A stretch of 64,000 nucleotides of DNA. Origin: Psammoneis japonica (lineage: Eukaryota). Position numbers and translations under genes: made by a program. Where the stretch lies: positions 273,939 to 337,938 of the forward strand of contig QPGO01000038.1 of NCBI GenBank assembly GCA_008632985.1, given 5' to 3'. The notes below the pieces were generated by a model that did not search any database, was not told where the DNA came from, and worked only from the letters and a program-made list of their open reading frames with translations. Below are positions 1 to 64,000 of the stretch, one piece after another; positions within the stretch are counted from its first letter, which is position 1; every line of letters begins with the position of its first letter.

Positions 1-3000
1 TGGGAGGCGCCAGAGCATGAGAAACAGAATGTCTGCAAACAACCTCTAATTTTGGCAGCAATGGGTGCACGATGGCCACAGAAACAAAATCACCTGTTGC
101 GCCAGAAACATTGACAAATGCATCAAGTGGCGATGCTTCAGGGGGATGTGATGGAGAGGAATCATTTGAAACCATCATGGTTGACTTTTGTGTTGGCTTG
201 TGCTGCTTTTCTCTTTTTGCAGAGAAGTGGCAAGTGCTGTGACCATTGATCATCCATCATTCTGTCATTGTCAGATTGTGGGCAATGAATCCTTGCAGGT
301 GGAAGCACGAGCGGCCCCTCGGACAGCAACCAAAAATGTGAAACTGCTTCAGCCTCCATTGCTTGACCTCCTTGTTGATGTTTTTGATGAACAACAAGCT
401 TGCTTTGTTGAGCACCTCATCCCATTGGATGGCACAACATTTGCTGTTTGCCCCCTCCCCCCCCCCGGCAGTTTGGTTTGCCAAGAAGAAGGGTCGTTGC
501 TCGCAGCAATGGAGGGGGAGGGGCTCTGGGTGCCACAGACTCTTCTGCTGTTTGCACCAATGCCCATCCAATCCTTGTTGTCCTGCATGCCAACACATTG
601 GAAATTTTTGAGTCACCGCTGTTGGTGCAATCTTCTCCATGATCATGGTGCCTCAAGAGTGGGTCCATTGCTGCCCAGCCTGTGCACAACCCCTGGGCTG
701 ATTTTGTGGCAGCAAAGGCATGCCCTTGGACTGGCGGGTGTCACTTGTCATTGCTGTCTGCCCGCCTTTTGTGACACCTGGGTTTTGTGTGATCCAATCT
801 GTTGTTCCTGACCCTGCTGCTTCACCAAATTCAGAGTGACCCCTTCATTGACTCACCTTGGTTGCAGCACTCTGCATGCTTCACAGCTCTGCTGTGCCAA
901 CGTTGTGCACCAGGGTGTCCCACAACACATGACAAGGTTTCACATGCCATTTGGTCTGAAGCCAATGAGTGCACTGCATTGTTGTGGCAGCTGGTCCATC
1001 ACAGCAGAGAGAGACCCCATCAAAGTGAGCATGCTCCGGAGGAGCTGATGCCAACATGAAGTTTTGCCTGTGCAAGTTGGACATGCCAAAATCCTGCACA
1101 GCACACAGTTGTTGGAAAACAACTCCACATTTAAAACATGAGTGGCTTCCTTGGGTCATTCCTCTCAGCTGCATGAGTTGGCAGGATGAGCCAGTGGCAG
1201 AAAAAGAGAGAGCACCATGCTCTTCAATTGAAGCTTTCTTCATGCCAAGCTTCTGCAAAATGTCAACATCTGAGTGCCCACATTGTGAGTTGTGAGTGTG
1301 GGAACACAGAGTTGGCATCATTGTCCTCTCCTTCTCCTGGCAGCATCATGACAGTGGATCCAGCCAGCTTCACAACATTGGGGTGGCATTGGAGCAGTGT
1401 GCTCACTCCTTTTCCAAACATTGCAAAAAAGAAGAGTTGCCACCTTTGTTGAGCTTGCTTGCCTGAGAGCTGTCTGCATGTGGTGTTGTTGTCATGCCAG
1501 TTGGAAGCAAGTGATGCTCATGCTGTTTCTGTTCTGCTGTGTCAAACTTGGGGCAAAGTGCAAAAGCTGTGATGTCCAGCTGCAGCACCAGAGTTCTCAA
1601 CATGCCTCTCCAAACTCAGGCTCAATGTTCTGTCATGCTTTCCTTTCAGATGGCACACAGCTTTGATGGTTTGACAGGTGTTTGGGTGTGAATGGGCATT
1701 GGCACCTTGCTGCATGAGCATGCAGCATTGTCATTGTCAGTGACAGTCAGCCATCGGCCAGTCAGCGGGCTCTTCTCTGATGCAACAAATGACTCAAACA
1801 CCTTGCCCTCAGCTCAGCTTGGTTTTGCCCATTTGGGGATTCCCCAAAATGGCCAGGGTGAGGGGGAGTTGCTGTGCCCGTTTGGGGAAAACCCGGGAAA
1901 TGAGGGCAATTTTGTGGGAAGGAACACCTGAAAGGGCTCAAGGGATGGAACACAAAATGAATGGAGTGCTGCAATGTGAGAAGCAATTGAAGTCAGGGCG
2001 GATGTGCTTTTGTTCCCATGATGACCAACGTCTCGATGCAACGACGTGATGCAAGACAACGACCAACACATCAACACACACATCAACACAAGCAGCTCCT
2101 TTTGGTGGAGCAAGGAAAGGACAAACTTTGCCATCATCAAATCAGCCATGTCAATGTTGCTCATGTGTGGCTCTGTTGTTTTTGCCTTGTCCTTTGCTCT
2201 GGAGCTCAAGAGAGCACCCGTGTGGAGCACTCTGACCTGTTGTCTGGCCCACAACAGCAGCAGTGTGATTCCACATGATGACATCACTCATGCACAGCAC
2301 GTGATGGTGTGATTTGCATGATCCACAATGCGAGCGCACAATCAATTGGCGCAATCCAAAATGCAAACGGACAGGAATTTGACGCGATTCCCCACTCGCA
2401 TGACTCCATTTCTCCACACATGAACTGGCTCATAATTTTCACAAACACACAGTTGAAACACATCTGCATTTTTGTTGCCTGTTGCATGCGTGAGGCAAAA
2501 CAACGACTGGCCATTCTTGCACTGGAGAAAGTGTGGCAGACAAAAGACTGTTGGCAATGCATTCCAGGCCCAGGTGGGAGCTCGCAGTGCTGACGTGTGA
2601 CACAATTGTTTTTCATCATCCGTTGCATGTTTTGCATGCACATTTCCATGTGTGACATTTCAAAAAATTGTTCCAGACTCGCTGTTTTGCAAAACCCCAG
2701 ATGTTTCATTTGACGAAATTGTGGGAACACAAACAGGCCAGGCGCATTCTTCAACGTCTGAAGAGTGCACCTGGCCAAGTGGAAAATGATGTGCTTCAAT
2801 CACACATGAGTTTGTGCATTGGCAAAATTGCCTCATTTTCTGTTGGCAATCATTGAAATGTCAACCACCTGACAGTTTCATTGCGGAGCTCGCACGTGGA
2901 ATTCTGCGGGCCCAATGTCACACGGATTCCCATCTGCATCTGGAACGCGTCTGGCTCCAATTGCTGACAACTCTGACATGTGAATGTGTGGTTCATTGTC

Positions 3001-6000
3001 TGCACATGTGTCGAAATCATGATGAGAGAAAAAGTGCAGCAAAATGAGCGTTCATCCCCACGTTCATTCCAGAATTGCTGAGGCACTTAAATGGGATTTT
3101 TATGGCGCCCATTTTTAAGTGCAAAAATTGTTGTTGTTGCACCCAATCACACACAAAAACAAGAACATCAAGCACCGTGATCAAAGCATGACACCAACGG
3201 CAATCTCAACATTCCTCCAAAATGCACTGGTCCGTCTGCAAACCTTTGGTGTGCATGTGACCTTTGATGCACAACAAACACAAAACAGACAGGAGTTGGC
3301 AGATGGACCACTTCCATCACAGACTTGTGGCTTGATGTTTTCACCATGGTGAAGCACAGTGAAATTCAGGACATGTCATGCAAATCATGAGCTGTTTGGC
3401 CAAATTTGAGCCAAAAAAGTGGCAAATGACCCCCCTCAATGGGGGCCCCCCACAAGTCTGTACGTTGCCCATCACAGCTGCTTCCGCTCTGTGACAGACA
3501 CGCTTCCATCACAAAAAAGCATGTCAACCATGAAGATTGCTGATGCTGCAATGCTTCCTGTCATCACATTTCCGGCCACCTTTGGAGGTGCATGGATGGA
3601 TCAGGACCTTGTTGTGAATGCACTAAAACATGGCAGCTTTCCAGGACTTCACAAGTCCAACATCTCATCTGTGCTGCAGGTGCCTCAAATTTGGCTGCCC
3701 TTCATGCAGACAACTGCCAAGGGATTTGCTTCTACAATGTTGCTCTAGTGGGTGAAGAACTCCAGCACAATCGCCATCAAGCACATGAGTCTGAAGGGTG
3801 GCTTCCTCAAAGGATTGGGAACAAATGTTTCCTCAGCAACTCAAGGGAAAAGGATGGCACTGCAGCACTGTGGAGGCATGTCGGAAGTGGTCCACTTGCA
3901 CAAGGAGAACAACGGCGATGCAAGTTCCAAAAGAAGTCTCGCAGACACAGAAGAATGCACTCGTGAAAACATCAAGCCACAAGTCAGTGACAAAGGTGGC
4001 CCATCTGCCAACTCTCATTTGTTTTGTGTTTGTTGTGCATCAAAGGTCACACACACATCAAATGTTTGTGGATGGACCACACTGCATTTTGGAGCTGTGC
4101 GGACATCACCGTCATCATTGTGCTTTGATTGCAGTGCCTGATGTTCTTGTTTTCATGTGCGATCGGGGGGTGAATGTAAATGATTTTTGCATTCAAAAAC
4201 AAGCACCACAAATGTCCTCATTCAAGTGCCACGGCAATTCCAGGATGAACACAGGGATGACCCCCCTTGACACGAGAAGGGTTGCACTCAACTCAAAAAA
4301 GTTGCTCCAGTGGATGGACGTGAAGACTTGCAGGGGGGTCCCCGTCAAGTTGTGTTGACTTGTGCACGCATGCAACAGTTGTCAAAAATTTGGAGTCCTG
4401 GCTGACGGTTGGTGCCCGGGTTCCGACACGGTGCTGCACTGCCACACACGGCAACGGAACATTTACATGGCAACATCATTTTTCACAGCACTGGCAGACT
4501 GGAGGCCCTCTGCTTCCTCAATGCACGCAGAGCATTGTCATGCTGTGCTGCACGGCACAGCACAATCACAGCACTGCATGACTGTTGCACTCTGTCCCAT
4601 GACGTTTAAACACGCCGTTGGGAATTTCGCGTCCACAGTGCCGCACTGCATTGTCACAATAGAATGACAGGCGCAAACTCCCCATCATGCGAGTGGCATT
4701 TTTTGTCAAAGGCAGCTGCACTCAAGGACAAGGAACAACATGCAAAGCAAAGTGCAACATGCAGACAAGGAGCTTGTGCAGAAACAAAGTGTCCAGCCAC
4801 ACCAGAGCACCAGTGGAGGAGTCCACAAGAGGAGGCAGAGCAACACAAAGAAGCAAGAAGAGAGAAGCCACCAGAGGGGACAAGAGCCTGCACAGAGGAT
4901 GGCGGCATGTGCTGTGCCTTGAAGAACCGGGTGGAAGGGGTGAACAAAATGCCAAAAAAGGGGGAAGTTGTGAGACTGTTTTGGGAGCAGAAAGCAAGAA
5001 GCAGTTGTGAGATGCTTTGCAGCATGACCCAGCAAAAGCTCGTTGCCGCCCCAGCAGGCCAGCCAAGAATGTCTGTGTGTTGTCCATGACCAAGCAGCAG
5101 CACCCTGAAAAGTGTTTTTAACACCACTTTGGGGTGTGACCCAGTTGTCATTGAGAGCTGTGCCTCACAAAAAACTGCTCCAGTGCTTGTCAGTGAATCT
5201 CCAGGCATGTGCGAAAGCACCAGAGCTTGCCAAAGATGTCTCTCTGCTGCTGTGCGCTGCTTCTGTCAAATGAGAGCACAAGCATGTGCTCCATGACCTC
5301 TTTGCAGAGCCAGGCAATCATCTTTGCAGCTTTGGTGTTTGGTGCAGAGTTCCCAGCACAGTGCTTTGCTGTGGCACCAACAAGGTCATGGGGGCAAGAG
5401 CAGCAGCGTCAGCAGCAAAAAGCAGCTCTGCTGTGTGTTGGAGCAGCAAGCAGCCAGAGCAACAACAACAAACAGAAAAGATGAAAAGAGCAGAAGTTTG
5501 CAGGCATGCAGCATCTGAGGTGGCCAGAAATGATCTCCAGTGTGTGCCAGCACAAGACAAGCAGTGGCAAAAGCAGGGTGAGAAAACAAAGGCTTGCTTT
5601 GATGAGGATGGCATGGGCAAAGTCAAGAAGCTCAGAGAGAAGTGAGCCAACTTGGTGCAGTCTTGGCACCAGGTGGTGGCTCAAGAGTGCATGTCATTGT
5701 GCACAGCCGCTGCTTGTGAGGCGCCAGCCAAGAGCAGCAGCAGTGCTGGCCAGCTCCCAGGAGCTGCCAGAGCTTGGCCGGCCTCTTGCATTGCCAGCTC
5801 AGAACACTTTGTGGAAGAGTTGAAAAGCAAAATGCTTTGATCCTTGTGTGTGGCATGGCGGCAGGAAGGAAGTGGGTGAGACAAGCTTGAAGTGCTGGGT
5901 GAGACAAGCTTGCTCTCTTCCACTGCAAAAGAAGAAACAACAACAACAGAGAGACACGGGGCAAGCAACAGCTGACAACAGCAATTCTTTCTGCTTGGAA

Positions 6001-6335
6001 TGCCATCACATTTTCTTTGTTCACTGTCCCAGTTGCTTGTGTTAGACTGGCGACATTTGTGCCACAAGATCCGTCTTCTCTGTGCGCTCTGCCGCATGAT
6101 GGCGGTTTGAAGCTGTCTTTGACTGACTGCTTGATTAAAATGACAAAGGGCAATGTGTGATGACTCAAAAAAAAGCACCCCGTTGAGCAAGCAAAAATTC
6201 GCCTTCATGTGCGGCATGACCTTGTCACGTCCTCTGCCTCATGCACGGTGCAAATTGTGTGCCGCGCACAAAGCACAATTGCTTGAAGAAGGATGACCTT
6301 CCATGTCAGCATTGTCGTCATGTGCGGTGTCCCAC
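1..6335. mobile_element. Heavily mutated (TpA/CpG-depleted) repeat/pseudogene debris; the first ~1.5 kb may be a non-LTR retroelement remnant on the - strand
   Basis: TA nearly absent; only spurious Cys/His/Gln-rich ORFs. The - strand peptide 'ILQKLGM...GVVFQQLCAVQDFGMSNLHRQ' only weakly resembles the post-RT region of non-LTR elements. Confidence 0.4.
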
Positions 6336-9300
6336 CACGGTGCTAATCTCAGCGACATGGCATCGTAGAAATGTGTTCTTTGCGCCAGAGGCACACATTT
6401 GTGAATGATGTGTTTCGCTGGCAGCGCTGCCGACAGATTTCCCTTTTTTCCACACTTCACCGTGACAAAAAAAAAATGGTGAGTTGCCGTTGCTTTCGAC
6501 GATGTCGTTTGCCAGAAGTGATGAGTGCGAGTGTCATGTTTTGACAAACTGTTGCCAATCACCATCGATGCTGATGACATTGCCAAAAACATCACAATCA
6601 CACTCATCAGGAGACCGTTTTTGGACGATGCCACTGTTGGCACCGCTGCAAAGCAAAATGGTGCGTGCCGCTGCTGTTGATCATGTGGTTTGCCAAAAAC
6701 AACACACACGAGGACTGTGTTTTGATGCAACATTGGCATTCAATGTCAACACCAACTGCACATGTAAAAACACATTGCTCTCGCATTCATCAGGAGACTG
6801 TTTTGTGATGACCCTGCTGTCTGCTGTTGTCGCCGCGACACAAGTTTCAGAATGTTCCCTCGGCGAGTTAAAAGTCAGGGGTGCTCATTGCTTGTTCACT
6901 TTGGCTCTTGCAGCCAGCTCTCACAATGTCTCACAGATGCACAGGAATGGAAAAATGGTGTTCACGAAGTGCGTTGCCATTTGGTGGTGGCTTTGACGCA
7001 CCCAGACCAGTCCATCTTGTCATTTTTCAGCATGTCCACTCCACCAAGTCAACAGTTGAGAGTGCGCATTGCGCTTTCACTTTGGCCCTTCTGGTCATCT
7101 CTCATGTCATCTTGCAGACACATGTGAGTGCAAAAACAGTGTTCAGGGAACACATTTGGAGGCCCTCTGATGGTTTGTCCCATCTCTTCCATTTGCCGTC
7201 GGCAGTTTTTGGAAGGTTCGCTGCTTCAGTGCATCATTCCAGTTGCTCTCTTTGCACCCAATTGGCTTGACATTTGCTGCAAATGACACATCAACAATCT
7301 GCAAAAAACAACTGTGTTGCACTGGGTTTAGAAGTTCTTCAGATGGCAGGAGTGACTGACCACCCCCTGACCTTGACGACCAAGTGTGCCCAAAAATGCC
7401 AAGTTCCGGCCTCTCCTTGTGCCACCAAGGTTGCAAATTGTAGTGAGTCAAACATGCATCTCGTCACAACAATCCAAAACAATGTTGGATGCTCTGTTGC
7501 AACATTCTGCGCTGTTCCTGGCCCCACAAGCGACCGGCAACTGCCGACTGAGGACCAAAGCTTGAAACAAAAATGCTGTGTTCCGGCCTCTTGTTGCACC
7601 ACCAAGACCGCATGCTGCAATGACTCAAGCACACATCTTGTCATGATGACCCAAAGCAACACTGGATGCCCTGTCGCAGGTTTCTAAATTGTTTCTGGCC
7701 CCACAAGCAACCAGCAACTGGTGACCGGAGAAAATGAAAAGCCGCGCCATGTCCATCAAAATGCCAAGAAACACAAAACCTTTAGAAGATGCCAACAAAA
7801 CAACAACACCATCACACTCTGCACACTTGAATTGCCTTGTGACAATGCTGTTGACGCCAGAATGTTGTCCCAATGATGGCCGATTTGTGAACAGAGACAA
7901 GTTGCAGAGAAAACAAAAAACCACCCTGTCCATCTAAATGCCAAAGAAACACAAAACCTTCAGAAGACAACAACAAAAAACCAGCACAATCATGCTCATC
8001 ATGTTCGAATTGCCTTGAATCAATGCTCTTGACCCTGTGACATTTTCCCAGTGACGGTGCATTCATTGACGCCATGCCACCATGGCTGTTTCATTCTCAC
8101 CTTTTTCATGAGAGTCCAGACAGTTGTTGAGGTTGTGGGCCCAAACCACACTGCGTCACTTCATGCACAGAAAAAATGCACTGCACCACACTGTTTGATG
8201 ACCTGCCAACAATGCGGTCTTGGCGCGCCAAGAGGCTGGAACACAGCATTTTTGTTTCAAGCTTTGGTCCTTGGTCGGCAGTTGCAGCTCACTTGTGGGG
8301 CCAGGAATGGTGCAGAACATTGTGACAGTGCACCCAACATTGTTTTGGATTGTCATGACGAGATGCATGTTTGACTCATTCATCACAATTTGTGACCTTG
8401 GTGGCACAAGGAGAGGCCGGAACTTGGCATTTTTGGGCACACCATTTTTCCATTCCTGTGTGTCTGTGAGACATTGTGAGAGCCAACTGTGAGATCCAAA
8501 GTGAACAAGCAACAAGCACTCCTGACGTTCGACTCACCGAGGGAACATGCTGAGACTTGTGTCACGGTGACAACAGCAGACAGCAGGGTCATCACAAAAC
8601 GGTCTCCTGATGAATGCGAGAGAGCAATGTTTTTGCATGTGCAGTTGGTGTTGACATTGAACGCCAATGTTGCATCAAAACACAGTCCTCTTGCATGTTG
8701 TTTTCGGCAAACTGTGTGATCAACAGCAGCGGCACGCACCACCTTGCTTTGCAGCAGTGCCAACAGTGGCATCGTCCAAAAACGGTCTCCTGATGAGTGC
8801 GAGTGTGATGTTTTTAGCAGTGTCATCAGCATTGACAGTGATTGGCAACAATTTGTCAAAACATCACACTCGCACTCATCACTTCAGGCAAATGACATCA
8901 TCGAAAGCAACGGCGACTCACCATTTTTTTCATCACGGTGAAGTGTGGAAAAAAGGGAAATCTGTCGGCAGCGCTGCCAGCGAAACACATCATTCACAAA
9001 TGTGCGCCTCTGGCGCAAAGAACACATTTCTACGATGCCATGTCACTGAGATTGCTGCACCACACCGACAGTCTGTCAATGGTTGAGAAGTCTTTTTTCC
9101 GGATGACCTCGCAGACCCCATGACCCATGCTGTGTCGATCGAAAGCTCGCGACGAGCTGGACAAGGTCAAACGCATGTTGCATCGGTTGGAGTGAGCGGA
9201 AAGCGAATGTTTGTCGTTGAAAGTTTGGTTTTTGTTTGAGCAAAAATGACTGTTACAATCGCCTTTTTCCAATTGATTTTTGCTTTTATGTGCAATCCTT

Positions 9301-10851
9301 GCTCACATCATGAATGTGACATTTGATCCGGGGTTCGGGAATCTTGCACAGGTTTGTGTGCTGAAGCACATGAGTTGCTTGTGGGACACCTTGTTTCCAC
9401 ACTTTGCTCTTGTTCTGGAGCTTTCACAATGGACGACATCAAAAATCAGCTTTCGTCACTCGCTGGAACTGGGTGTTTTTTAGCGAGTGACGAAAGCCGA
9501 TTTTCGACACGCCGCATGTTTTCCATCCGCCAATTTACAGCCGAAATTATCAGCAAATTGCAACGACAGGTGTCAGTCGTCGTAAATTCTCTCCCGTGGG
9601 TGTAATTTTCACGGCAAATTCGGCGTTTTGGGAGCTCGAACGTGCCACGTCACACAAGCCGCCCATTTTTTTTCTTTCTCTGCTCCGATCGCACAACAAC
9701 CATGATGGCTGCTGCCATGAACGGACCCGTTCATGCACGAACGACCGTCCTGTCTACGAAGGCAAGAATGCAGAGACAGGTCAATGAGACTGCGCTCGAT
9801 GCGATCAAGCTGTCACAATTTTGATTTTTTGTTGTTGTCATGGCTCATGACGACCGTGTCGACTGATGGCATTTTTGATGTCTTCGTTTCTCTTGTTCAG
9901 ATTTCGCATTGGGATTCTTCACAAACCACACGTCTGCAGACTTGAGGCTGAATCCTCGCAGCAATGTGTTGTGATCTGATGTCACACTGAGGTGGTTCTT
10001 TGGTGTGTGCTCAAGGTTGCTTGATTGATGGTCAAGAGTCAAGAATGCAACATTTTGGTCACTTCAACAACAACAGGAAGGCTTGTTGTGATGGAATGTG
10101 ACTGTGAAGAAGGCTGTGTGCACTCATTTCATCAATCTTGTCGGAAGTTGGGACAATGATGCCAGTGGGGGTCAATGTTTTGCACAACATCGTCGGCATT
10201 GTGCCTCACAGTGCCTTGCTCTGCTGTCTGGAGGCCTTCTCTGCGACTTGCTCTTTGTTGCTTTGCTCTTTGTCACTTTGCTCTTTGAAGTGGATTTGGG
10301 CCAATGGCAAACCGCAAGAGTCAACAATGGCGCCTTTTGGTGCCTCACATTCTGCAGAAACTACATTCAGCAGTTTTGCATGCTGCAGCCTCACTGCACG
10401 CCATTGTTTCGTGCGTCTTTCTGATCTCTCTGCAACTCTTGCCAGTGGATTGAATGTTGGACATGTTTCTTCTGACCTTCGCTGGTGTCATCCTGAGTCG
10501 TGGGTCACCGCAGAGCAATCGCAAAATGGACAACGATTGTCGCTGACAATGTTGTGGTGTCTCTCTAGCTAGCAGCTCTAGCCAGTGCTGCAGCAGCAGT
10601 GCAAACAGTGCTGTGGCGTGCAGCGTCCTCACCGAGCTCGACATGAGATTTTGATCTTTTTTACCGATCGAATTCGTTCCCAGCCTGACGCCCGTAAATG
10701 CGTAAATTTGGCCAAATTGTGTTCATTTTACGGCCGAAATTATCAGGGTGGGAACGTGCCTGAGTGTTTTCGGTGTCGAGATTTTTTGAACAGCAAAAAA
10801 AACAAAAAACTTCGCTGCCATTGACAGACCGTCGGTGCCGGCAGCACCGTG
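6336..10851. mobile_element. Non-autonomous TIR DNA element whose left TIR is interrupted by a foldback element
   Basis: Joining 6336-6344 (CACGGTGCT) to 9057-9082 (GCACCACACCGACAGTCTGTCAATGG) rebuilds an inverted match to 10818-10851 (CCATTGACAGACCGTCGGTGCCGGCAGCACCGTG). No transposase is recognisable. Confidence 0.65.
6345..9053. mobile_element. Foldback element with ~850-bp inverted arms and a 3-bp GCT target-site duplication
   Basis: 6345-6961 plus 7388-~7618 is the reverse complement of ~8207-9053 (mirror ORFs 6239..6739- and 8667..9086+). Termini are AATCTCAG...CTGAGATT, flanked by GCT at 6342-6344 and 9054-9056. Confidence 0.85.
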
Positions 10852-10899
10852 AATCACAAATCACAGCATGGGGGACGTCTTCGGAAGTGAGACTGTCGA

Positions 10900-11270: not shown

Positions 11271-12288
11271 ACCAAAAATTCCTTGTATTTGGTTTCGAAT
11301 AAGCACTTCCGTCTTATTTGCTTTCGCCCGTAGGAACCATACTGTCTCCTACTGACGGTGTCTCTGAACGCACGAAATGACCCCGTTATATACATCCTAA
11401 ATATCATATATAAATATATGTACACGTCATTTCATATGAATACCTACGTAAAATGTACATCCCTTCAACTTTGAACGTTTCTAGTTCACTCTAAACATCC
11501 ACCAGAGACCACAGTAAAGGCTGCGTTGGAAAGAGCAGATTCTCAGCTTTCCATCGATGTGCCGTTTGTTCCCCACGTACAATTTGTACTGGAGATACAG
11601 TCGTGGCAGTCCAAGCGGTTTTATGTCCAGCACAGCGTACAAATTGTACAGGGGTCACCGATCTAGTGTTTATTATTTATTATCCCGGACGATTACTTAT
11701 TCGTTAGACTTTATTGGCGAAGAAACGTGACAATTGCATTTAGGTAACTTTTATTCGAACATTTAGTGTGAGTTGAACTTACGTCAATGATGACGTCATA
11801 ACGGTCTTTCTGGGTAGGCGTGCGTCGGAACTGCCTGACACCGGCCTCGTTTGGCGTCGAAGGCTTAAATAAAATAGTAATAGATGATGTCATCAACTTA
11901 AGTAGGAAAATGTCCGACGTGTCTTCATGTCTTACGGATTTTATTTATGAAAATAATAAACACTGCATTTACGGTCAAATATAGAAATAAAATTATTTGG
12001 ATTCGTTAGCAATACAATGCTCGTGGAAATAATACGAAAAACAATAAACACTAGATGTGCGCGCTGCGCGATTTCGATTAGATCAGCGATGCCTGTACTG
12101 GGAAAACCCCAAACGCACTGGCGATCAGACCGCCTTCTACGATCTCACTTCCAAAGACGCCCCCCAAGCAGGTTGTTGTGGATGGATCGCTCGCAAGACT
12201 CCTCGCACTTCATTCAACGCGTCGAATGAGAGAGACGACGAAATTGTGAGCAAAAAAAGAAATCAACCCACAACAACAAACCAGGAAC

Positions 12289-14070: not shown

Positions 14071-14511
14071 ATGACAAGATGGCTTGATCATTGTTTTTGT
14101 TGCATCAGTCTGTTCTCAAGCACCGCTCACTCCGGCGCACAGAACACATGCCGCCACCGCCGCAAAGCCCTGGAAAACACTGATCGCCACAACATCTGTC
14201 GTCTCTGAATTTTTTTGCTGCCACCACATCACGTGGGCCTCTGAAATTTGTTCTAGTTGGTGATGCAGAAACAAAGACCTGCAGATTGTTCATTTTTCGT
14301 TTCTCTTGCTTCCTTCCTTTGCTCCACAGGTGGAGAGGATGCGACTGACGGACGATGGTCGAATCAATCGAGCGAGCGAGCGGCGACCGGAGCGATAGGC
14401 GAGGGATTCATTCCGCGGACCAACTTATTCTCGCCGCCGACGGACGAGATTGAAGATGGCGGGCAAAGATCTTGTCAAGCATTATTCAAGCTGAACTGTC
14501 GCTCGTTAGCC

Positions 14512-17789: not shown

Positions 17790-18190
17790 CATCTTGCTCT
17801 GCTCACCACACAGCAAACACATGCTCTTAGAGCCGGGGCGTGTTTTACAGACTTTGAACTGAGCTGCAACATTGACAGCTCATGATCTGTGGCACTCATC
17901 CAAGATGCCACTCAACCTTTGAGATTGAAGCAAGCAGCAAGATGTGGCAACTGCTGATGAGCTCAAAAGGAAAGAAGCAAGTGGAGTTTGGAGATCTCAG
18001 CTCTCCTGAGTGGTGTGGGGTTGAACCAACCAAAGTGCTTCTCTGCAGTGCCCCCCTCTGCAAAGCTGAGAAAGACACAAAGAGAGTCCATCAATGTCAG
18101 AATTTTTTGCCTGAGAAAGTGTGCAACAAGCCCCTGGGGAACAAGCAGCACCTTGTTGCACTTTGCAGCATTTGCCACAATGCAGTGACA
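17790..18190 (+). pseudogene. Hypermutated partial paralog of the downstream FG-GAP/ASPIC gene
   Basis: 'MICGTHPRCHSTFEIEASSKMWQLLMSSKG..FGDLSSPEW..HQCQNFLPEKVC..HLVALCSI' aligns with 'VICGTRPGRHGIFELEASKTWRPLKNSKG..FGDLNSPEY..HRCKSFLPKNVC..HHVALCSI' at ~20680-21015. Confidence 0.85.
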
Positions 18191-47450: not shown

Positions 47451-48019
47451 TCTCGCCAATGCCGGTTCCGAGAAATTCGGAGACTTGTCCAGCCACCAGT
47501 GATCTAGGAGAGCTAAATGCACCTCCATCCTCGTTAAGTTGGTCCCTGCGATGTCTACGGCCTGAGGGTGCCATAGGACAATGGCAAGGCTGGTTATGGA
47601 GGAGACTGCTTTCATCGTGTGGTTGCGCATCTAATGACATGCATTCTTTAAACATTTTTCTCTTTTGCTCTCGGTCATGCATCTGATGGTTTGCAATCAC
47701 TCGAAACCGATTATTTCGGTAAGTAGCTCCAACATAGAGTGGATTGGGCATCATGCGTCGTCTCGATACTGGATACGTGGCAGGAATATGTCATTCGATG
47801 AATTACGCTGGTGTTATTCTATTGCACTTTTCCAAGCGTTTTGCAAGAAGCGGAGAGATCGGCGTGGTGTGCATCGCTTGCATGTGTTCAGCTGATGTTG
47901 TGGTACGGAATTATTATAGATGAAGATCAGTGATTTCAAATATTTATATAGTTACTCTTGTTCTGTGAAAAGGGACCACTACAGAGTTGGAAGAAGACCA
48001 GAACGGCGCTCGTACCTGT

Positions 48020-54164: not shown

Positions 54165-56142
54165 CTAGTCGATGGCGGTAATGTCACGCCCAAAGAGACG
54201 CGACTTGACCCAGTCAATGGCCACCAGAGCGCGATTCCTCATGGACGCTTGTTTCATCAAATACACGCTTCTCCATAGACCAAATCCAACCGTTCCAGTA
54301 GCCTTGACGCGTGTCTTTTCGTCTGGTGTTACTTGAACCTGTGCAAGTGCTGAAAACCCACCCGTATATGCCAAAATGCCCATGTCAAGGAACTGGAACG
54401 GTACCATGTACTCGTCCGTCTGGACGGCAAAGGAAGCAATCGCATCCATTAAGCTATTGGATTTCTCCGGATCTCGTTTGGGTGGTAACATAACACCCTC
54501 CTCACTGTACTCTGTATCAAGGTTGGCCTTTGACAAGACGTGGGCAAGGAACTCTCCTTCTTGAGCAGCGACTTGGGCGGTGCTCGGCAAGCAAGCCATT
54601 TGCGTACAGGCGCAGTCACCCAATGCAAAGATGCGGCCCTTGCCATTCACGGCTCGAAGCCACGGATCTACCGCGAGCTTTCCGCGAGCCTTTTCTTGGG
54701 CTTCAACTTGTCTCCCACCAATAGCCTCAATGATATCTAGTGTAATGGGCAAAGGTCCGATACCGCCGGCCCATACCGCCAAGCCATACGGTATTTTTGA
54801 GCCATCAGCAAGGTCAATGGTATCGGCGGTCACCTCTTTGACAGACTTGTTGATAATAAGTTCAGTCAACCCATCTGGGAACAAACTTTTGAGGGCTGGG
54901 TCCTTGATGTTGGTACCGCGAGTAAGCACATTAATGGCTGTTTCTCGCAAGCTCTCGTCAAAGGGCCTCAGAATTACTGGCGTTGCTTCAATAACCTTGA
55001 TTTGAGCGTCTTTGAGTAAATGGGGATAATACTTTGGACCGTCTTCTTCGATGAAGTCTCGAAGCTCGGCTGCAAATTCAATACCCGTTGGACCAGCACC
55101 AATCACGGCAAAGGTCAACAGCTTGCGACGCTCTTGTTCCGATTGACCTGGAAAATTCGCTCTTTCAAACAAACTGACAATCTTGCGCCGAATGTGCCTT
55201 GCATCATTAATCTGCTTCAAAAAGAGGCAGTGCTCTTCGACACCGGGAATACCAAATGTGTTGGTTTTCGCTCCGACCGCCACCACAAGCCGATCATACT
55301 TGACTTCAATGTCTGTAATCTCGCATTCCTCATCGCATTGAACCCCTTGGCAAGTTACAATTCGAGCCTCGGTATCGATAGAGGATGCGGCTGCCTCCAA
55401 GTAGTTGGCTTGTCGATTGAACTGAGAAAGAGAAGGGCAAAACGAACGTATGAAGTGAGCGCATCAACATTCTGGAAAATGCACCGTTATTCTTCATACG
55501 AATCAACGTACCTCTCGAATCGGTTGAGTAATACTCCGAACGTCCACAGTACCTACGCTAGCACCTGCGAGCATGGGAGTGAACAAAAAGTAGTTCCGTG
55601 GACTGATAACCGTCACGTCGTAGTGATCATTGTCGATCTCGCTCAATAAGGCAGCAGCTCCCCAGCCAGTGCCCAAAATAACCAATTTCTCTTTTGTCTC
55701 CGTGATTGCGCTGTTGACGGCAACTTTCTTAATCAACGGACTTGGAACTAGGTCCCCCAATACCTTGGCTGCCTTTTCCATAAGGAAGAGAGGATATGCA
55801 CGAGGCTTGGTGAGACGTCCTAGCTTTGCTTGGAGCTTCTCGTCCTGTACTTGGCATGCGTAGCTACAGCAATCGCCAGGACTCTTGCTCGGCAAACCTT
55901 GCAATACCCCGTGATCCTGGGCTTTGGCATTGACTATGTCGCGTTGTCCTGCTGCCTCCTCCACAGCTATGCGGGTGGGCTTTTCGCCAATGTAATAGCG
56001 GCACGTCTCTTTGATGCGCTGGCTGGGTGGCGTCGTTCTCCCCAACAAAAGTTCTTGGGCCAATGCCGGTGAATGACGAAGTCTCTCTCACCATGCAAGA
56101 GACTAGTGCAACGAATCCGATAATTCGTGTTGTTAGCTTCAT
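54165..56142 (-). CDS. NDH2: Type II (alternative) NAD(P)H dehydrogenase, probably plastid-targeted; intron 55422-55511, one frameshift in the N-terminal region
   Basis: LVILGTGWGA, ISPRNYFLFTPML, YDRLVVAVGA, FAVIGAGPTGIEFAAEL, IFALGDCA, LPSTAQVAAQEGEFLA, LWRSVYL..Q.S.RNR..V..DW....FGRD; signal ending 'ETSSF'. Confidence 0.93.
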
Positions 56143-57455
56143 TTTTTCTCACTTTGTGTGTTTGTTTTGAGAACAAGCGGTGGAGCGATGAAAAGCCAGA
56201 CAGAGGGTTCGCATTCAAGAGGTTTCTCCGAAACACATTTCGCGCGAGCGAGGAAAGGCCTGCCATTTTCACCGAGTCGGCTCTTTTGCACGGGAGAACA
56301 CGCGAGAGTGGGCGGGCATGGTGATCTTCAAAAGGATCACCCAATTGTCATACTTTGACCACAACAAAAAGCAGAACATTGTTGTCGTCATGTGATTGCA
56401 AAGAGGGACAAGCAAGTCGACTCACTCTGAACTTCAAGTTTTCTTTCTAGACTGCAAAGTTCACAGAAATCCAAGCAGACCGACTTTGTCAGACTGGCGG
56501 GACATTGCTCAAGCTCCTCAGTGGGGTTTGTTTTTCGTTGCTTCTCTGTCAAGTAGTTCCTCGTGAAGACAATGGTGCAAAACGTCAGTCAGAAAGAAAC
56601 TGATGCACAATTGGGCGATTTTGAGCTACGATTTTTCTGTTTCATGCGATCGTCATGGTGTTGATCCCAGTCGAGGAGGCTGACAGTGTGTGTTTGCGGT
56701 CTCTGCGTGTTTCAAAAGACGTGCTTTCACACAAGGCACAGCACAATGGCATTCGAGAGAAACCAGCCAAAAATCGAGAAAGCATGTTGTCGCCCCTGGC
56801 ATGGCTCGTAACTTGGTGGCATTTTGCCATCCCCTTCAAACATGAGAGCAAACAAGCTTCGAAACGCACTGTGCCTCGTCTTGTCCACGGGTGTTCCCTG
56901 GATGCAATGCCCAAGCAGGTGGTTGTCCTTTGATCCAAATGTGACAGTGAAAAAGACAGCCACCTGAGGCAGCCAAAATGACGTGCCGACTGTCGCCATG
57001 TCCACCTCTTGTTTCAAGCCGAGGTTCAGGAGAGCAAAAGTCATCGAGTGTGAAAGGGCAGTCTTGAAAATGAGTGCATGAACCATGAGAATGTGAGCTT
57101 GAAAAAAAGTGTCATGTGGATGAATGGCGCTCTTGTGTAAATCCGCCAGTGCGATGCAGTCCTGATGGACAAGTGGAACAGTCTGAGGATGGACAGAATG
57201 TGTCTGGAGGTGCCGGCGTTCAAAGATTTCACCATCTTGACTGAAGCCAAGGTGTGCAGTGACTGTGTGGGGTGTGCAAGCACCAAGAACATGCGCAGAC
57301 AAAGGATCCCTTTGGGCTTCATTGTCAAAGGGTGTAAAAATGTGTCAGTCAAAAGCTGGCAGTGGCATTTCTGTCAACAGCATGGTCCACCCACGCGGAA
57401 ATGAGCCAGATGACAGCACAAGCTGGGGTGACAACAACCATCTAAAGCAGACACA

Positions 57456-57769
57456 TGTCAACAGCATCCACTGTCAAAGTGCTCATGATCATTGTGAAAG
57501 TCGAAATCTGCAAGAATGCTCATGATCATTGTGAAAGTCGAAATCTGCAAGAAGTGAGAGAGAAGAGAAGAGAGCCCCAAAAGCAACCCAAAAGATCTGA
57601 AGGGACCGAAGGTGTCACTTCAGCACTGAGTTCCACACATTTGATGGCAGATCAGACAAAGAAATGATGAATGACCTGAAAAAGCGATTCACAAGGAGGA
57701 TGTGCTCCCACACGTGACCAACCCATGTCATCAACTCAGAAACCAATGACTCAGAAAGTCAGCTCTCAT
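57456..57769 (-). repeat. Putative 3' LTR of the copia, containing a 37-bp tandem duplication
   Basis: Starts TG just after the PPT and ends ...TGTTGACA. TGCTCATGATCATTGTGAAAGTCGAAATCTGCAAGAA occurs twice (57480-57553). The 5' LTR is outside the window, so the boundary is unconfirmed. Confidence 0.55.
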
Positions 57770-60700
57770 CGCTCTCCCTCTCGAGAAGACGTCGACTGCA
57801 AGACATCAGATCGCCACTGAAAATTTAAAATGAAGTTCGCACCAAAAACACAACCCATCATGCAATGATGCGAAACCACATGCAGAGACACAACAACCCC
57901 AATTGCCATGCCTGATTGCCATTGCTCCATTTCACACATGACAAATGCATTTGAACCCAAACCAACATGCACACAAGTGCAAATGTCAACCGCCTGCCAC
58001 CCCATCAACTTCTTCGGCAAATGCTCAAACTTTTCTTGAACTGGACCCTTTGTGAAGACATCCGCCAACTGTTCCTTGCTGGCAATCTTTTGAATGTGAG
58101 TCAAATGGTCAGGTTGAGCAATGTGAGACTTGAAGAAATGATGCTTCACTGCGACATGCTTGGTCGCCAATGACAAAGCACTGTTGTTGTCCTCAAAAAC
58201 GGCAGAGTGGAACAAAATGTCATCATTCCCATCAACACTCATCAAAGAGGCAACCTCCTTGACAAGTCCTTTCATGGGTGGCAGGACTCTCATTGCCTGA
58301 GACAAGGCAACATGCTCTGCCTTGAGAGTGGACAACAATGCCATTTCGGTCTGCAACTTGGAAGCCCAAATCAAAGGGCTGTCACCAATGGTCAGTGCAT
58401 GACCAGAGTGACTCTTGACACAAACAGGATCTTGAGGATCTTCATGGTTCCAAAGTCTTGCAAAATCCACGTCACAGCAACAATCCAATCTCGAATTGTC
58501 AGACATGGTGAAAATCATGCCACGATCCGAAGTCTTCTGAAGATGATGGACGACATGCTTGACTGCTTCCTCATCATGACTCTTCTTGGGATTGTGGGTG
58601 AATCAAGCACAACCATGCACCACACATTGAATGTCAGGCCTTGTGTTGGAAGCCAAATGAAGCATTGTGCCAATGACACTTGCATGGCTCCACGACTCGA
58701 CCTGCTCCGGTCTGTCAGCATCCGCAGCCAATGGACCAGAGCTGGCTGGAGCAGCCTTGGCATTGCAGCCAACCATGTTGGTGGCCGCAATGATCTTCTG
58801 AACAAGTCCTTTCTGTGACAGATGGACAGCACCAGCCTCGTGGTCCTTTTCAACATTGACTCCAAGAAATCCATTTGCATCATCCTCAATGTAAAGCTTG
58901 CATCCATTTGCCTTGAGCTGATCAACAATTTTGTCAATCTTGGACAAATCCTTGGCAAAGAACAGACAGTTGTCAATGTGGACGAGACAAACAACATGAT
59001 GCTGGAACCAAGTCGTTGCAGCTTGACGCAATCTGCAGAGATTCTTGTTCAATTTCAAGACGTGGTCCCCGTCTGCACCCACTTCAAACAATTTGGGCAG
59101 CTCAACATGCACGTTTTCCCCGATGTCTGCTTGAGCAAATGCAAGAGCACAGTCAACTTGATGAGAAGCTGGACCGTGCAGATTCGACAAACTCATCAAA
59201 AGTCAAACCGTGCTTTGACTGACGACCGGAGCATGGGTCTTGAAGAATTCCATGCCCTCTTGTTGGTGCTGTCCTTGGACACAAAACCGTGCCTTGAACT
59301 TCTTGAGCCATCCATCAGGGTGTCTCTTGACCTTGAATGCCCAAGTGCCGGGCAATGTGTCAGTGTCAGCAGGCACCGAATCGCGCAAAACCGGAGCAAA
59401 CGAATTTCGACGCATCAAATCATTTGTCTCTGAGCACATGGCCTTCTTGAATTCTTCTGCGCAAGGACCTGCCATCGCTTCATGATGTGAAGGAGTGTCA
59501 GGGTCTCCAACCTTCTTGCCAGCAAAAGAGTCCAACAAATGGCTCGACAATGGACAGATGCCGTCCACTCCACATCTCCGTCCACGTCAGACATGAGAGC
59601 ATGTGTCTTCGCAAACTCCGCAGTCCGACAATCAGCACCAAACCACTTGGATGGATTAAAATAAAACCAGCAACCCCTTTGAGCACATGCCCATCACAAC
59701 CATGTTGATCCTTGCCTTCACAGCCATGACGATCTGGCGATCAAACAGTCTGTCCAGAATGCGTCCAGATCAGACTGCGAGCAGCCGGTTCTTTGGGATG
59801 AGGGTCATCGTTCTTGTCAATGGCCAAAGGTGCTTCTGGAGACATGGAACTCGTGAGTCTCCCTCTGGAGAGTGCTCTGCACCAAATGGAGTTAACGGAG
59901 ACTCGATGCCAGAAGGTGAGACATCATCATGTGTGCAATCAGGAGATGGAGGAGAATCTTGCAGAACACTGGGTTGTCTTGGAGTGTCAGACCTCCTGCG
60001 AAGAGAAGACTGACACAAAGAAGAGGTCCCAGCATCAACTCTTGAGTTCCTCTCCCTCTGTTCCACTGGAATCGAGTTCCCAGCCCAACGTTGCCTCCTG
60101 ATTTCTTCTCGCTGTTCGCGTCTTTCATGCAGCTCCGCTTCCGCAAGCCGGTTGTCCGATGACTGCGGTGGCACAGCCAGTGCCATCATCAGTGTCCACT
60201 GTGTGACGTGAAGTGGCAAGAAGATCACGCCAATTCCTTGGTGGCCTTTGCTCATCATCAGAGTGAACTGTCTCAAACCAGTTGTCGCAGACAACATGGA
60301 ATTGAGCGGACATGGAACCTGTCCTGAGATTCCTGATTAAACCAACAGCACTGGCATGCAATGGAGAGAAGCCCACAAACTGACCACGACAACTGCAGGC
60401 CTTCCAAAAAGGTGTCTTCTTCCCATCTTGCAAAGTGGGATCCAACACATGAGTCGGACATCCCCAAATGGGTGAATTTGTGAGTGTCAGAGTTGAAGAA
60501 AGTTTCACTCCCGCAAAGACTTCCTCCGGACACAATCCGTTGAAATCCAGTCATGGGGTCAGATTCCATGATTGAACAGAATGACTTTTGGCCATGGGCC
60601 ACAAGTCCATCTCTGCTGTGTCCGGCCATCAAACTGCAGCATGAAACATCATGGTTCGGGCACATTCAGCAACAGCATGTGTCGCTTGCTCCACAATTGT

Positions 60701-63088
60701 GTTGTGATGATGTGCCCCAACACCGCTGAGCTTCCTGCCCTGTCCAGCAGCCTCCAATTCCTTGACAAACTTGTCACTGACAAAGACTCCGTCATCCAAT
60801 TGGCACTTTTGAACAGCAATGCCTGCAGAAGCAGCCTCCCTCTCAAAGGCCACTTTGCTCTTGACAGTCTCGAAAGCACCTGATGAAACTTGGTGATGCA
60901 CAGAGACCTTGCCCAAAGCAATGTCAACAAAAACAGCACCACCACCACATTTGTCCCTGCCTCCTTCATCTTGCCACAGGATTGGAGTGGACGTCCTCAT
61001 GTTGAAGAGACACGCTGATCAGTGGCTGCCAGCTGTCCAGGATGAAGAATGTTTGCCTTCATGGCTTGATCCTGTTCCGGAACCTTGCCAGTCTTGGTCG
61101 CACCGGTGGAACAACGAGTCATTCCACCGCACTGACATGAAGCACATTTGGGATTTGGCACGGACGTAGAACCAACAATCCTTGCAGCATCTCCAAGGTG
61201 CCCTTGACAAGCCAACCATTTGACATGATCAAACCCAAGATGACCAAGACGAAAATGCCACTGCAATGGTCGCTTCTGCTTCGCAGACAAATTTTGGTTG
61301 AATTTGTTGGCAACACATGCGTGGATTTGCTTCTTCTGTGCAATGGTGGAGAAATTGTTTCTCCCAATCACCACTGGCAGGTCATTCGCCTTGTGATGAG
61401 GCATTGCAATCTTGCCGCCATCCCTCCATGAGAAGAATGCATGATCCTTGGAAGTGTTGATGTCGAGCAGACATCCCACCCCACTTCCTTCTTTGTCGTG
61501 ACCACAGTGCGTTGCACTCAACAATCACATGGGAGAGGAGAGAATGAAGAAACAACTTGTGCAAATGTGTCACTCTCATCCTGTGTCATCGAATGCCATC
61601 CATTCAACAATGCCAGTGCCCTTGACATCAACAGGTCCTCTGACTCTGAGTGAAGTTTTGGAGTCCGTGAACAACTCGAGGGTCCCTGGCACGAAATCAT
61701 CCACATCACAAGTGGAGGCAATGTTCACACCAGAATCGAAGAGCATTTCGAATTGCTTGTCATGGGGAGCCAAGAAAGTCATGGGCAAGTGATCTGTCTG
61801 CTCCTTCAAATCGACGTTCGCGAAGATTCGTGTGAGCGTGCATGAGATCAATTCCGAATTTGAAAATTTGAAATCTCCAGTCGTGTGAGCTGTTGGGACT
61901 CGACAGCCACAAGCACACTGCACTAAACCAGAATTCAAAGGGACAGAATCTGCATCTTGATGTTCCATGAGCTCTTAAATCGAATCGTCACAACAGGAAC
62001 CACAACACGAGAACTCAAAATCAGGCATCTTGTTGAGCAGACGATCAAGTTCTTGAGGTGTCATGAACCGTTTCTTGGAAGACTCAGGCTGCAGGGCTTG
62101 ATGAACCCCAATGAACATCAAAATGACAACCAACAAATGAATGAATCGGTGACAAAAAACTGAACCGAGTGCGCTTTGTTGGGTCTTGTGGAACAATTCT
62201 TGCTTGGATGACATTCCTGGATCGGGCGGCTCCTTGTTGTTGGGTGTCTCCACATCTCTGCAAATGAATCCAGGCATCCACAAGAAAGCCCATGGATGAC
62301 ACCCATAAATTGCAAAACGTGTCATGGCAAAAGCCCACACAGATGTCATGTGCACCGACAAAATGTTGAGGACTTCAGGGTGCATCTTGAGAGGAACTTG
62401 TCCTTGCTCTTGTTTGACATTGGTCTCCCTCTGACGATCAGTTTGGACAAGATTTGGGCCTTTCATGAACAGCAAACTGATGATGAAACTCATCCACTGG
62501 CCCACCAGTTTAACATCGTTCGTGCGAAGTGCAAGCCATGCAGATGCGATTGTTTGTTTGACTCACCACCGGAGCAGACAAATCTTGAGGTTGACCTTGA
62601 TCAGTGCCTTGAATGGAGGGATCCCAATTCACACGACATTCATTGGAATTTGCAGCACGGCCCTCTGACTGGTCTTGAGGCACAGCACTGTTCCCAGCAC
62701 TCGGATTCCGCACCGGATGACAGTTTGGGTTAGGACCCCCCTCTCAAGCAGCATGATTCGATGTCTCGTGAGTGGTCCAGCAAGCACATCTGCCACACCA
62801 ACACTCGGTGACACCGTTGGCCACATGAGCATGAGGCTCATCATGCCTGGGAGGAATCCTGCGAGGATCCCTTGGAGGTCCTCGACCACTGTCATTGTCT
62901 CCATGACCACCTCAACCACGTCCACGGCCTCCTCTGCCACCTCGGCCTCTTCCTTGACCTCAGCCACTGCGTCCACCACGTCCACCACACGGCCGCCTCC
63001 TTGAACAATCGGGTGAGGGCAATCAGGACAAACATGGCCCTTTTCGCCACAATTGCAGCAGGTGCAATCATCTTGACAGGTGAGAAAG

Positions 63089-63539
63089 TGCAGCATGCAT
63101 GCAGACAAAAGGTTGTTTTGTCATGCCCTTTGTGACATTTAAAGGCTGCAACACGTCGCCGTGACACATTGACTCTCACTGGCAGCTGTGTGTTGCACTC
63201 CTCCCCATGTGTCACGCGTCCATGTGGCTCTTTGCCAATGTGCGCTGACACTGCACGGTTTTGGCAGAACAGTGTGGGTGCGCACGAAGGAACACACAGA
63301 ACTGCACATAGTTTAACGCGTTCGACAGTGATCAACGTTGCTGCAGACAACTCCCACTCAGGGTTTCGAACCCCTGGCCTCCTGCCTGATGGTTATGATG
63401 AACCACTCCGCCATGAATTCACAATCACAACGCAGCATGCATGCAGACAAAAGGTCATTTTGTCACGCCCTTTGTGACATTTAAAGGCTGTAACACGTCG
63501 CCGTGACACATTGGCTCTTGTTGGCAGCTGTGCATTGCA
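63089..63539 (-). mobile_element. TRIM (miniature LTR element) inserted in the copia gag
   Basis: 109-bp direct repeats 63089-63197 and 63431-63539 with TG/CG...CA ends; 4-bp TSD AAAG (63085-88, 63540-43); PPT GGGGAGGAG on the - strand (63198-63206). Confidence 0.9.
63350..63420 (-). promoter_or_regulatory. tRNA-derived Pol III A/B-box segment inside the TRIM
   Basis: - strand TGGCGGAGTGG (A box) and GGTTCGAAACCC (B box/T-loop) at tRNA-like spacing; no clean cloverleaf. Confidence 0.6.
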
Positions 63540-64000
63540 AAAGGACGCAGCTCCAGAATCGCCTTGATTCAAAGGCGTCCACTTGTCACGATCAACCAAG
63601 CTTGTGCAAGCCTCTTGTTGGCACGCACAACAAGATCAGTGCACGCGTGCCTCATGGGATCAATGTCGACTTCATTGAAGACAATCAAGAGCTGAATCCT
63701 GAAGGTCTTGACAGCAGATGTCGCAAGTCCTTCACACATGATTGAAGAAGCATCTTCAGGCAACTTGTGACATCCTTCCAGCTTCCTGCAAATCTCCACA
63801 ATCTTTGCAGCACAATGCAGCTCATTCATGACCAGCTTGAAAATCACGGGTCCACACGCAGGACCACAGACACACTTTTTTGGACATCACCATGAAGAGC
63901 AACGCCAATGGAGTTGAGAAAGAACTTGGCGGACCAAAGCAAGTTCTGCTTGTCATGCTGGTCACCATTCAAGAGCAACTCTTGCACGTGGTCTTCAATC

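Follow-up and report, generated by a model that had tools for sequence, protein, structure and literature searches.

In a 64,000-nucleotide stretch of the genome of the diatom Psammoneis japonica (GenBank assembly GCA_008632985.1, contig QPGO01000038.1, positions 273,939 to 337,938 of the forward strand; referred to here as the window), six sharply bounded blocks were found to be almost free of the dinucleotide TA. Very probably, a TA-specific transition process has acted beside CpG decay in these bounded domains of diatom DNA. The signature of this process, its direction, its TA specificity and its organisation in domains are shown here, and accurate reads carry the signature too. The blocks would represent repeat-derived or otherwise non-genic DNA, brought near saturation by two context-specific transition processes on integrated DNA. 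The first would be the ordinary, partial decay of CpG to TpG/CpA that is expected where cytosines are methylated. The second would be a near-complete conversion of TpA to TpG/CpA, in which A:T pairs are changed to G:C only at 5'-TA-3', each TA site is hit on either strand independently, and the conversion stops at sharp domain edges. Judged by its sequence signature, we class this second process as probably the TpA hypermutation that Mettrop et al. (bioRxiv 10.64898/2026.01.13.699255) reported for integrated viral DNA of a chlorarachniophyte, Bigelowiella natans, found here in another eukaryotic lineage and taken to saturation.

TA-depleted domains

The base composition of the window was ordinary (A 16,758, C 15,438, G 15,389, and T 16,415), and the distribution of TA along it was bimodal. 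In 1-kb sliding windows, the observed/expected ratio of TA was 0.00-0.10 within six stretches, compared with 0.5-0.8 in gene regions. Two-state segmentation with a hidden Markov model (HMM) run on the TA positions placed the TA-poor blocks at 1-10565, 12139-14395, 17847-19211, 38379-41093, 42606-47504, and 56135-64000. Together these blocks covered 29,667 bp (46% of the window) and contained 98 TA (3.3/kb), whereas the remaining 34,333 bp contained 1,531 TA (44.6/kb), a 13.5-fold higher density. The longest TA-free run, at 44147-47262, measured 3,115 bp, and the probability of such a run at normal density was about 1e-60.

The edges of the domains were sharp. At most boundaries the normal TA spacing continued right to the edge, for example at 17846|18744, 38378|39225, 12138|12443, and 47344|47505. 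Analysis of the flanking gene placed the true left edge of block 5 at about 43000-43190, compared with the HMM start at 42606. A preliminary description of the window, made from its letters alone, had proposed six near-TA-free blocks, and its coordinates matched the segmentation within about 100-500 bp, its start of block 5 (about 43100) being close as well. Its estimate by eye of a few dozen TA in the first 9 kb, where several hundred would be expected, corresponded to a count of 27 against about 400 expected at gene-region density, and the interleaved genes kept normal TA, as it had said. The observation of TA-poor, sharply bounded domains was confirmed as real and extreme.

Fate of the lost dinucleotides

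Comparison of the blocks with normal DNA showed that the frequency of CG decreased from 53.5/kb in normal DNA to 28.9/kb in the blocks, and that of TG+CA increased from 146.9/kb to 212.8/kb. The gain of 65.9/kb in TG+CA equalled the loss of 41.3/kb in TA plus the loss of 24.6/kb in CG, and thus both lost steps went to TG/CA. The frequencies of AA, AG, AC, GA, CC, and GG were unchanged, and AT and GC shifted slightly, as they must when the TAT/ATA and TAC/GTA contexts are converted. The lost steps were limited to the two self-complementary pyrimidine-purine dinucleotides, TA and CG. The GC content was nearly constant (0.49 for the blocks and 0.47 for the remaining DNA) because the TA and CG conversions cancel each other.

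Depletion of CG with a matching gain of TG/CA, as produced by decay of 5-methylcytosine (5mC), was found in the blocks and explained part of the signature only, since it covered just 24.6 of the 65.9 TG+CA gained per kb. The removal of TA was much more complete than that of CG, with observed/expected ratios per block of 0.01-0.07 for TA and 0.18-0.65 for CG. At about 8500-10565 and 46500-47000, TA was gone (0.03-0.13) and CG was near normal (0.8-1.0). The existence of DNA that is TA-free yet CG-normal means that the two processes have separate kinetics, with TA erasure occurring without, or well ahead of, CpG decay.

Direction of the changes

The direction of change was read from two degenerate sequences in the blocks. 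The first was an almost complete but broken Ty1/copia polyprotein in block 6 (57988..61911, minus strand) with gag-pre-integrase, integrase, reverse transcriptase (RT), and RNase H regions, matching Pfam RVT_2 and gag_pre-integrs. It was compared with 33 aligned full-length homologues (tblastn footprints) at the 381 positions with a residue shared by 60% or more of 10 or more homologues. None of the 11 conserved Tyr residues was kept in the block 6 copia; eight were replaced by CAT/CAC (His) and three by TGC/TGT (Cys), which are the one-step products of TAY codons. In contrast, 269 of the 348 conserved columns other than Tyr and Arg were kept (Fisher p 1.5e-7 vs Tyr), including Phe (18/21), Trp (12/14), Asp (24/28), Lys (13/15), and Asn (7/8). 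The retention of these other A/T-rich codons implied that no A-to-G or T-to-C change took place outside TpA at a comparable rate. Conserved Arg was kept at 10 of 22 positions, and its losses were mostly to TGN/CAN, the signature of CpG decay. The RT motif YVDD was changed to HIDN, the two translated copia pieces had one Tyr among their 607 residues (150 homologues had a median Tyr content of 3.05%), and the element carried stops and frameshifts. The His:Cys ratio of 8:3 did not represent a significant coding-strand bias (p 0.23).

The second sequence was a pseudogene fragment at 17760-18205 (plus strand), which corresponded to residues 300-442 of the neighbouring FG-GAP gene (tblastn E 7e-21). 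The FG-GAP repeat gene itself (19728..21515, plus strand; Pfam FG-GAP_3 and FG-GAP) is intact, lies in a segment with a TA ratio of 0.65, and was used as a proxy for the ancestral state. The identity between the pseudogene and the gene segment 20681-21012 was 72% at the nucleotide level and 87% in the purine/pyrimidine alphabet, and the TAs of the parent gene were mostly CA or TG in the pseudogene. Two contrary outcomes had been foreseen in the preliminary description, namely that active copies of the transposable elements (TEs) are themselves TA-free, and that A-to-G/T-to-C changes are not enriched at TpA. Since TA-free sequence cannot encode Tyr, which active copia needs, active copia copies cannot be TA-free, and the changes observed here were confined to TpA.

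These results bear on two other explanations. If the blocks were foreign DNA that had always been poor in TA, owing to selection or to the avoidance of restriction, no mutation process would be needed. A copia element with no conserved Tyr and with HIDN as its RT motif cannot be functional, its substitutions are the exact one-step products of TAY, stops and frameshifts are present in it, and a host-gene fragment is found in the same state. Native avoidance of TA is refuted for blocks 3 and 6, and for the blocks as a whole its probability is close to negligible. Error-prone repair of the Pol eta type, acting during lesion repair in heterochromatin, had been named as a candidate in the preliminary description, and this polymerase is established to make A-to-G changes at WA motifs, of which TA is one. 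However, AA, the other WA motif, was not depleted and AG was not gained (AA 80.8/kb vs 77.1/kb and AG 60.2/kb vs 59.6/kb, taken in the order blocks vs outside), and the conserved Lys and Asn of copia were kept. Pol eta is therefore disfavoured, and we consider its involvement quite improbable.

Tyrosine-free copia loci in metagenomes

Among 150 RT homologues, two were without any Tyr, P0138 (381 aa) and P0228 (161 aa). Searching with P0138 led to three metagenome contigs (L001-L003), which carried a different, Tyr-free copia family; with the mutated RT of the window as the query, no relative was found among the metagenome contigs. In L001-L003 the ratios were 0.02-0.09 for TA, 0.09-0.20 for CG, and 1.65-1.82 for TG/CA. 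The codon column of an LYG motif read TAC-G, CAT-G, and TGC-A in these contigs, so that TA was kept, changed to CA, or changed to TG, and the adjacent CG was affected likewise. The shared signature suggests that the TA-erasing process is not confined to the genome of the window. The Tyr codons, the gene/pseudogene pair, and the metagenome copies all supported the earlier proposal of a second process, converting TA to TG/CA on both strands beside CpG decay in bounded domains.

Strand symmetry and flanking bases

In the cores of the blocks, TG (2,862) and CA (2,845) were intermixed. Strand-coordinated tracts of TG or CA were not found in any of the six blocks (runs-test z from -1.9 to +1.8), a test of low power in which background TG/CA dilutes the signal. 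The heterogeneity of TG/CA among 500-bp bins was lower in the blocks than in gene regions.

The survival of TA depended on the following base. Relative to gene regions, the strand-symmetrised survival of TA-N was 0.168 for A, 0.082 for G, 0.044 for C, and 0.020 for T (chi-square p 1e-19). The survival of TTAA reached 0.455, and ATAT (0/134) and ATAC (0/247) were extinct. The trend was present in both large blocks and weak in the metagenome loci. Irrespective of whether the remaining TAs escaped conversion or appeared afterwards, it implies slower conversion where the A of TA is followed by A.

Changes after duplication and between sequence sets

Local repeat pairs in the blocks contained 45 adjacent TG/CA double mismatches in 986 aligned bp, compared with 4 in 2,022 bp for repeats of normal regions (p 4e-18), and the transition/transversion ratio of the repeat pairs was 2.33 in the blocks vs 1.18 in normal regions. 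A double mismatch of this kind is produced if a TA or CG inherited by both copies becomes TG in one of them and CA in the other. Most of them probably came from TA, as a simple model with 29 half-converted CG sites predicts only about 7 from CG.

The window was also compared with the Logan contigs of the public run X1, and 26 differences to the main contigs were examined, of 372 in all. Three of the 26 were TA/TG differences at or inside block 5 (42997, 43768, and 44036), ten were differences between CpG and TpG/CpA inside blocks 4 and 5, and one further CpG-type difference (37133) was located in normal DNA. Among the listed X1 differences (40 of 372), none of those in flanking normal DNA was at TA. 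These differences hint that, at fixed loci, the two processes have acted recently or are still active.

The X1 contigs covered the blocks at a word depth of 50-65, the same as the flanking genes, and reproduced the TA-free sequence. They differed from the window at 14 positions in 3,240 bp (41453-44691), 5 positions at 38900-40022, and 4 positions at 45617-46423. Single contigs bridged the block edges at 38379, about 43100, and 47504, and the contig covering 41453-44691 joined normal to TA-free DNA. The preliminary description had considered that accurate reads might show TA intact, which was not the case, the X1 contigs being TA-free too.

A sequencing or assembly artefact, in which heterochromatic TpA carries a modified base that is read wrongly, could mimic the Tyr-to-His/Cys changes and the TG/CA discordance between repeats, and run X1, for which no sequencing platform is recorded, may be the very data from which the assembly was built. 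Against such miscalling, kilobase contigs of exact 31-letter words carry the TA-free sequence at gene-level depth, which needs accurate reads, and strand-dependent misreading would be expected to split each site into two word paths and to break the contigs. Three unrelated metagenome assemblies share the signature, and in B. natans the process is seen in Illumina data from mutation-accumulation lines. An artefact is a highly improbable source of the pattern.

The same data bear on editing before integration, in which TE RNA is edited by an ADAR-like enzyme, or complementary DNA (cDNA) is deaminated, and the mutated copies are then inserted. ADARs are restricted to metazoans, to our knowledge. 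The retroelement nature of block 6 and the sharp edges agree with this explanation, as does the preference of ADAR for a 5' U, mentioned in the Discussion of the B. natans preprint (10.64898/2026.01.13.699255). However, the pseudogene fragment, which lies 2.5 kb from its parent gene, was mutated too, TG and CA were equal and intermixed without strand tracts, and TA/TG differences between the window and X1 occurred at the same locus. Moreover, the 3' preference was for Y rather than G, with survival lowest at TAT/TAC and not at TAG, and the mutations of B. natans arose in integrated DNA. Editing before integration is very unlikely on this evidence, and conversion of TpA in integrated DNA is the reading retained below.

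Contents of the blocks and flanking genes

The blocks were recorded without strand. Block 1 (1..10565), which extends past the left end of the window, contained 37 TA (observed/expected 0.053), with ratios of 0.43 for CG, 1.80 for TG, and 1.79 for CA. It holds inverted and tandem local repeats, and the repeat pairs show TG/CA double mismatches. A large inverted repeat of block 1 spans 6345-9053, with 6345-6961 matching 9053-8439 (91%) and 7384-7613 matching 8442-8212 (88%), and tandem units of about 165 bp (7391-8071, 6468-6821, and 8579-8940) showed 73% nucleotide identity and up to 95% purine/pyrimidine identity. Block 2 (12139..14395) contained 5 TA (0.034; CG 0.61), and block 3 (17847..19211), with the FG-GAP pseudogene fragment at its left, contained a single TA (0.012; CG 0.18). 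Block 4 (38379..41093) contained 8 TA (0.043; CG 0.26), and its left part of about 900 bp is multi-copy. At 38336-39269 the summed word depth in run X1 was 530-1045, compared with about 54 in the flanks, and the left part of block 4 therefore belongs to a family of roughly 10-20 copies at an identity of at least 85%. At the same threshold of at least 85% identity, block 5 was near single-copy in X1.

Block 5 (43000..47504, HMM start 42606) includes the TA-free run 44147-47262 and adjoins the start-codon region of a conserved diatom gene for a membrane protein (41893..42987, minus strand). The poorly conserved N-terminal part of the membrane-protein gene, at 42606-42987, had intermediate TA, with 5 in about 380 bp (about 13/kb), and it is ambiguous whether this low TA represents spill-over into a live gene or chance. 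Block 6 (56135..64000), which contains the copia polyprotein and continues beyond the right end of the window, had 26 TA (0.051; CG 0.53).

Of 89 open reading frames (ORFs) of at least 90 aa in the blocks, three matched Pfam, and all of them were copia pieces of block 6. Six-frame read-through, with stops as X, found no Pfam family in blocks 1 and 2 (12 frames) or block 5 (6 frames), and blocks 3 and 4 were scanned for Pfam as ORFs only. A homologue search with the longest ORF of block 5 found none, and no long terminal repeat (LTR) pair was found for the block 6 copia in the purine/pyrimidine alphabet. The preliminary description had called every block that it could identify a TE or pseudogene, a statement borne out only in part, by the copia of block 6, the pseudogene in part of block 3, and the multi-copy part of block 4; blocks 1, 2, and 5 matched no Pfam family in six frames.

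The interleaved ORFs were ordinary genes, such as those for the FG-GAP protein, an amine oxidase, NDH2, and others. The best matches of the NDH2 protein were in diatoms, a JGI protein being 74% identical to it and those of Bacillariaceae sp., Seminavis robusta, and Fistulifera solaris about 60%, which marks the DNA as that of a diatom and not of B. natans. An ORF at 26558-27640 carries two retroviral-type aspartyl protease domains (Asp_protease_2 and gag-asp_proteas) in TA-normal DNA, and is a host or domesticated gene spared by the TA process. The region 50209-52700 contains a tandem array at 50780-52636 with units of about 480 bp, which are 73-80% identical and have normal TA, and an ORF at 50209-50802 with weak Pfam matches to ADP-ribosyltransferase families (PF03496, E 7.8e-6; PF01129, E 3e-4). 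A 667-aa ORF at 33249-35252 matched no Pfam family and had TG locally far above CA; it includes an internal tandem duplication of 700 bp (33687-34393 vs 34404-35107, 86.7% identity).

Discussion

The preliminary description knew of no system like this one. The B. natans preprint (10.64898/2026.01.13.699255) reports exactly this signature, and was the only report of TpA hypermutation found in full-text literature searches, which gave no report for diatoms. Two silent viral inserts in B. natans mutation-accumulation lines acquired 231 single-nucleotide mutations, 230 of them A to G/T to C and all of these 230 assigned to TpA by the authors, and the rate in the viral inserts was estimated at about 1000-fold over background. 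The B. natans genome contains 124 TpA-depleted, CpA+TpG-enriched clusters, which are enriched in RT and DDE domains, and an ADAT2 homologue was proposed as the enzyme, with the DNA activity of ADAT2 homologues cited. The two cases have in common the exclusive change of TpA to TpG/CpA on both strands and its occurrence in discrete regions beside DNA of normal TA content. They differ in the host, which is a rhizarian there and a stramenopile here, and in the targets, which are inserts of nucleocytoplasmic large DNA viruses (NCLDV) and virophages there and an LTR retrotransposon, a pseudogene fragment, and unassigned repeats here. The TA ratio was 0.45 in the NCLDV region of B. natans and 0.01-0.07, at saturation, in the window; the de novo rate was measured in B. 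natans, whereas our results come from sequence comparison alone. The available text of the preprint contains no mention of diatoms, CpG, or flanking context. New in the window are the saturated conversion, the CpG decay in the same blocks, and the flanking preference, with ATAY extinct and TTAA half surviving.

Repeat-induced point mutation (RIP) of ascomycete fungi also inactivates repeats by dinucleotide-specific transitions in sharp domains and leaves long degenerate TE stretches. RIP runs from CpA to TpA and raises the AT content, the reverse of the conversion seen here, from TpA to CpA/TpG at an unchanged GC content of about 0.49; RIP mutates both duplicate copies, whereas the FG-GAP parent gene keeps an open frame and normal TA. 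RIP was rejected, since TA was lost, CA was gained, the GC content was no lower in the blocks than elsewhere, and the parent gene was intact; the tests for RIP failed here, in line with the remark in the preliminary description that RIP makes TA, the opposite pattern. In Phaeodactylum, TEs are CpG-methylated by DNMT5a, and some diatoms carry the RID-related DNMT4, whose function is not known (PMC9998398); the passages used from this source describe no TpA process. Decay of CpG in diatom TEs agrees with the CG ratios of 0.18-0.65 and the TG/CA gain in the blocks, but it cannot remove TA, and part of the TA-free DNA keeps normal CG.

As to the chemistry, adenine would be converted to hypoxanthine by hydrolytic deamination in the 5'-T-A context by a deaminase of the TadA/ADAT2 type, whose 3' neighbour preference would follow the order T, C > G > A, and the inosine would then be fixed as G at replication. 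The natural substrate of TadA/ADAT2-ADAT3, A34, follows the invariant U33, which is a 5'-UA context. TadA/ADAT2-ADAT3 and the TadA-derived base editors deaminate A that is then read as G, a resemblance at the level of a working model. This deamination seems the most likely chemistry and is plausible, at a probability somewhat short of even. ADAR and APOBEC3 of animals also inactivate selfish elements by deamination and leave clustered transitions. ADAR differs in its double-stranded RNA (dsRNA) substrate, its 3' G preference, and its metazoan distribution, whereas the window shows A:T-to-G:C changes at TA with a 3' Y, including a non-retro pseudogene; APOBEC differs in changing C to T on one strand, compared with A:T to G:C at TA on both strands here.

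The same process could instead act in situ on thymine, if a TET/JBP-type oxidase made 5-hydroxymethyluracil (5hmU) or 5-formyluracil in heterochromatin, which mispairs with G and leads to T-to-C changes. TA is palindromic, and T to C on one strand is A to G on the other; oxidised thymines are mutagenic towards T to C, and the 5hmU of dinoflagellates is located at TpA/TpC. On the other side, near-complete conversion would require very efficient mispairing, and the full-depth contigs carry fixed TG or CA on both strands. We regard thymine oxidation as unlikely.

Several points weigh against our interpretation of the blocks. Since TA is its own reverse complement, the sequence cannot separate deamination of A from T-directed chemistry. 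No candidate enzyme gene was found among the ORFs of the 64-kb window, in agreement with the earlier remark that the responsible enzyme was not evident there. That the blocks are silenced, that the process serves defence, and that an enzymatic activity is aimed at silenced DNA is what we infer. Blocks 1, 2, and 5 are without a recognisable TE protein, so that TEs are a putative target class. In block 3 the TA-free domain starts at 17847, about 90 bp into the pseudogene fragment, and TAs are left at 17828 and 17846; the limits of a domain thus need not be those of a duplicated segment or element. The ancestral TA-context frequencies used for the flanking preference were borrowed from gene regions rather than from elements. 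In addition, run X1, whose platform is not on record, may be the assembly's own source data and would then not be fully independent.

Tentatively, and as a possibility that we hold to be well short of even, diatoms and chlorarachniophytes may share an old genome-defence system. In such a system, a DNA adenine deaminase recruited to silenced DNA would edit A in 5'-TA-3', best at ATAY and poorly at TTAA, on both strands, until no TA, and hence no Tyr codon and no TAA or TAG stop, was left. If true, an adenine-deaminase system would be the mirror image of fungal RIP and the natural counterpart of engineered adenine base editors, and a natural TA-specific DNA adenine editor would be relevant to genome defence, mutation-rate evolution, and base editing. 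The saturated end state shows the efficiency and the specificity of the process, and the extinction of ATAY together with the resistance of TTAA provides a fingerprint for testing candidate enzymes.

For the annotation of such genomes, the absence of TAA/TAG stops from TA-free domains results in long false ORFs. Degraded TEs also escape similarity searches, and recoding into purines and pyrimidines lifted the match of the pseudogene from 72% to 87%. A dinucleotide map is enough to find the silenced DNA of these genomes. If the pattern holds genome-wide, the TpA process would span at least two lineages of the SAR group (stramenopiles, alveolates, and rhizarians), and diatoms, which are major primary producers of the ocean, would destroy their transposons by a process known from one preprint on an unrelated alga.

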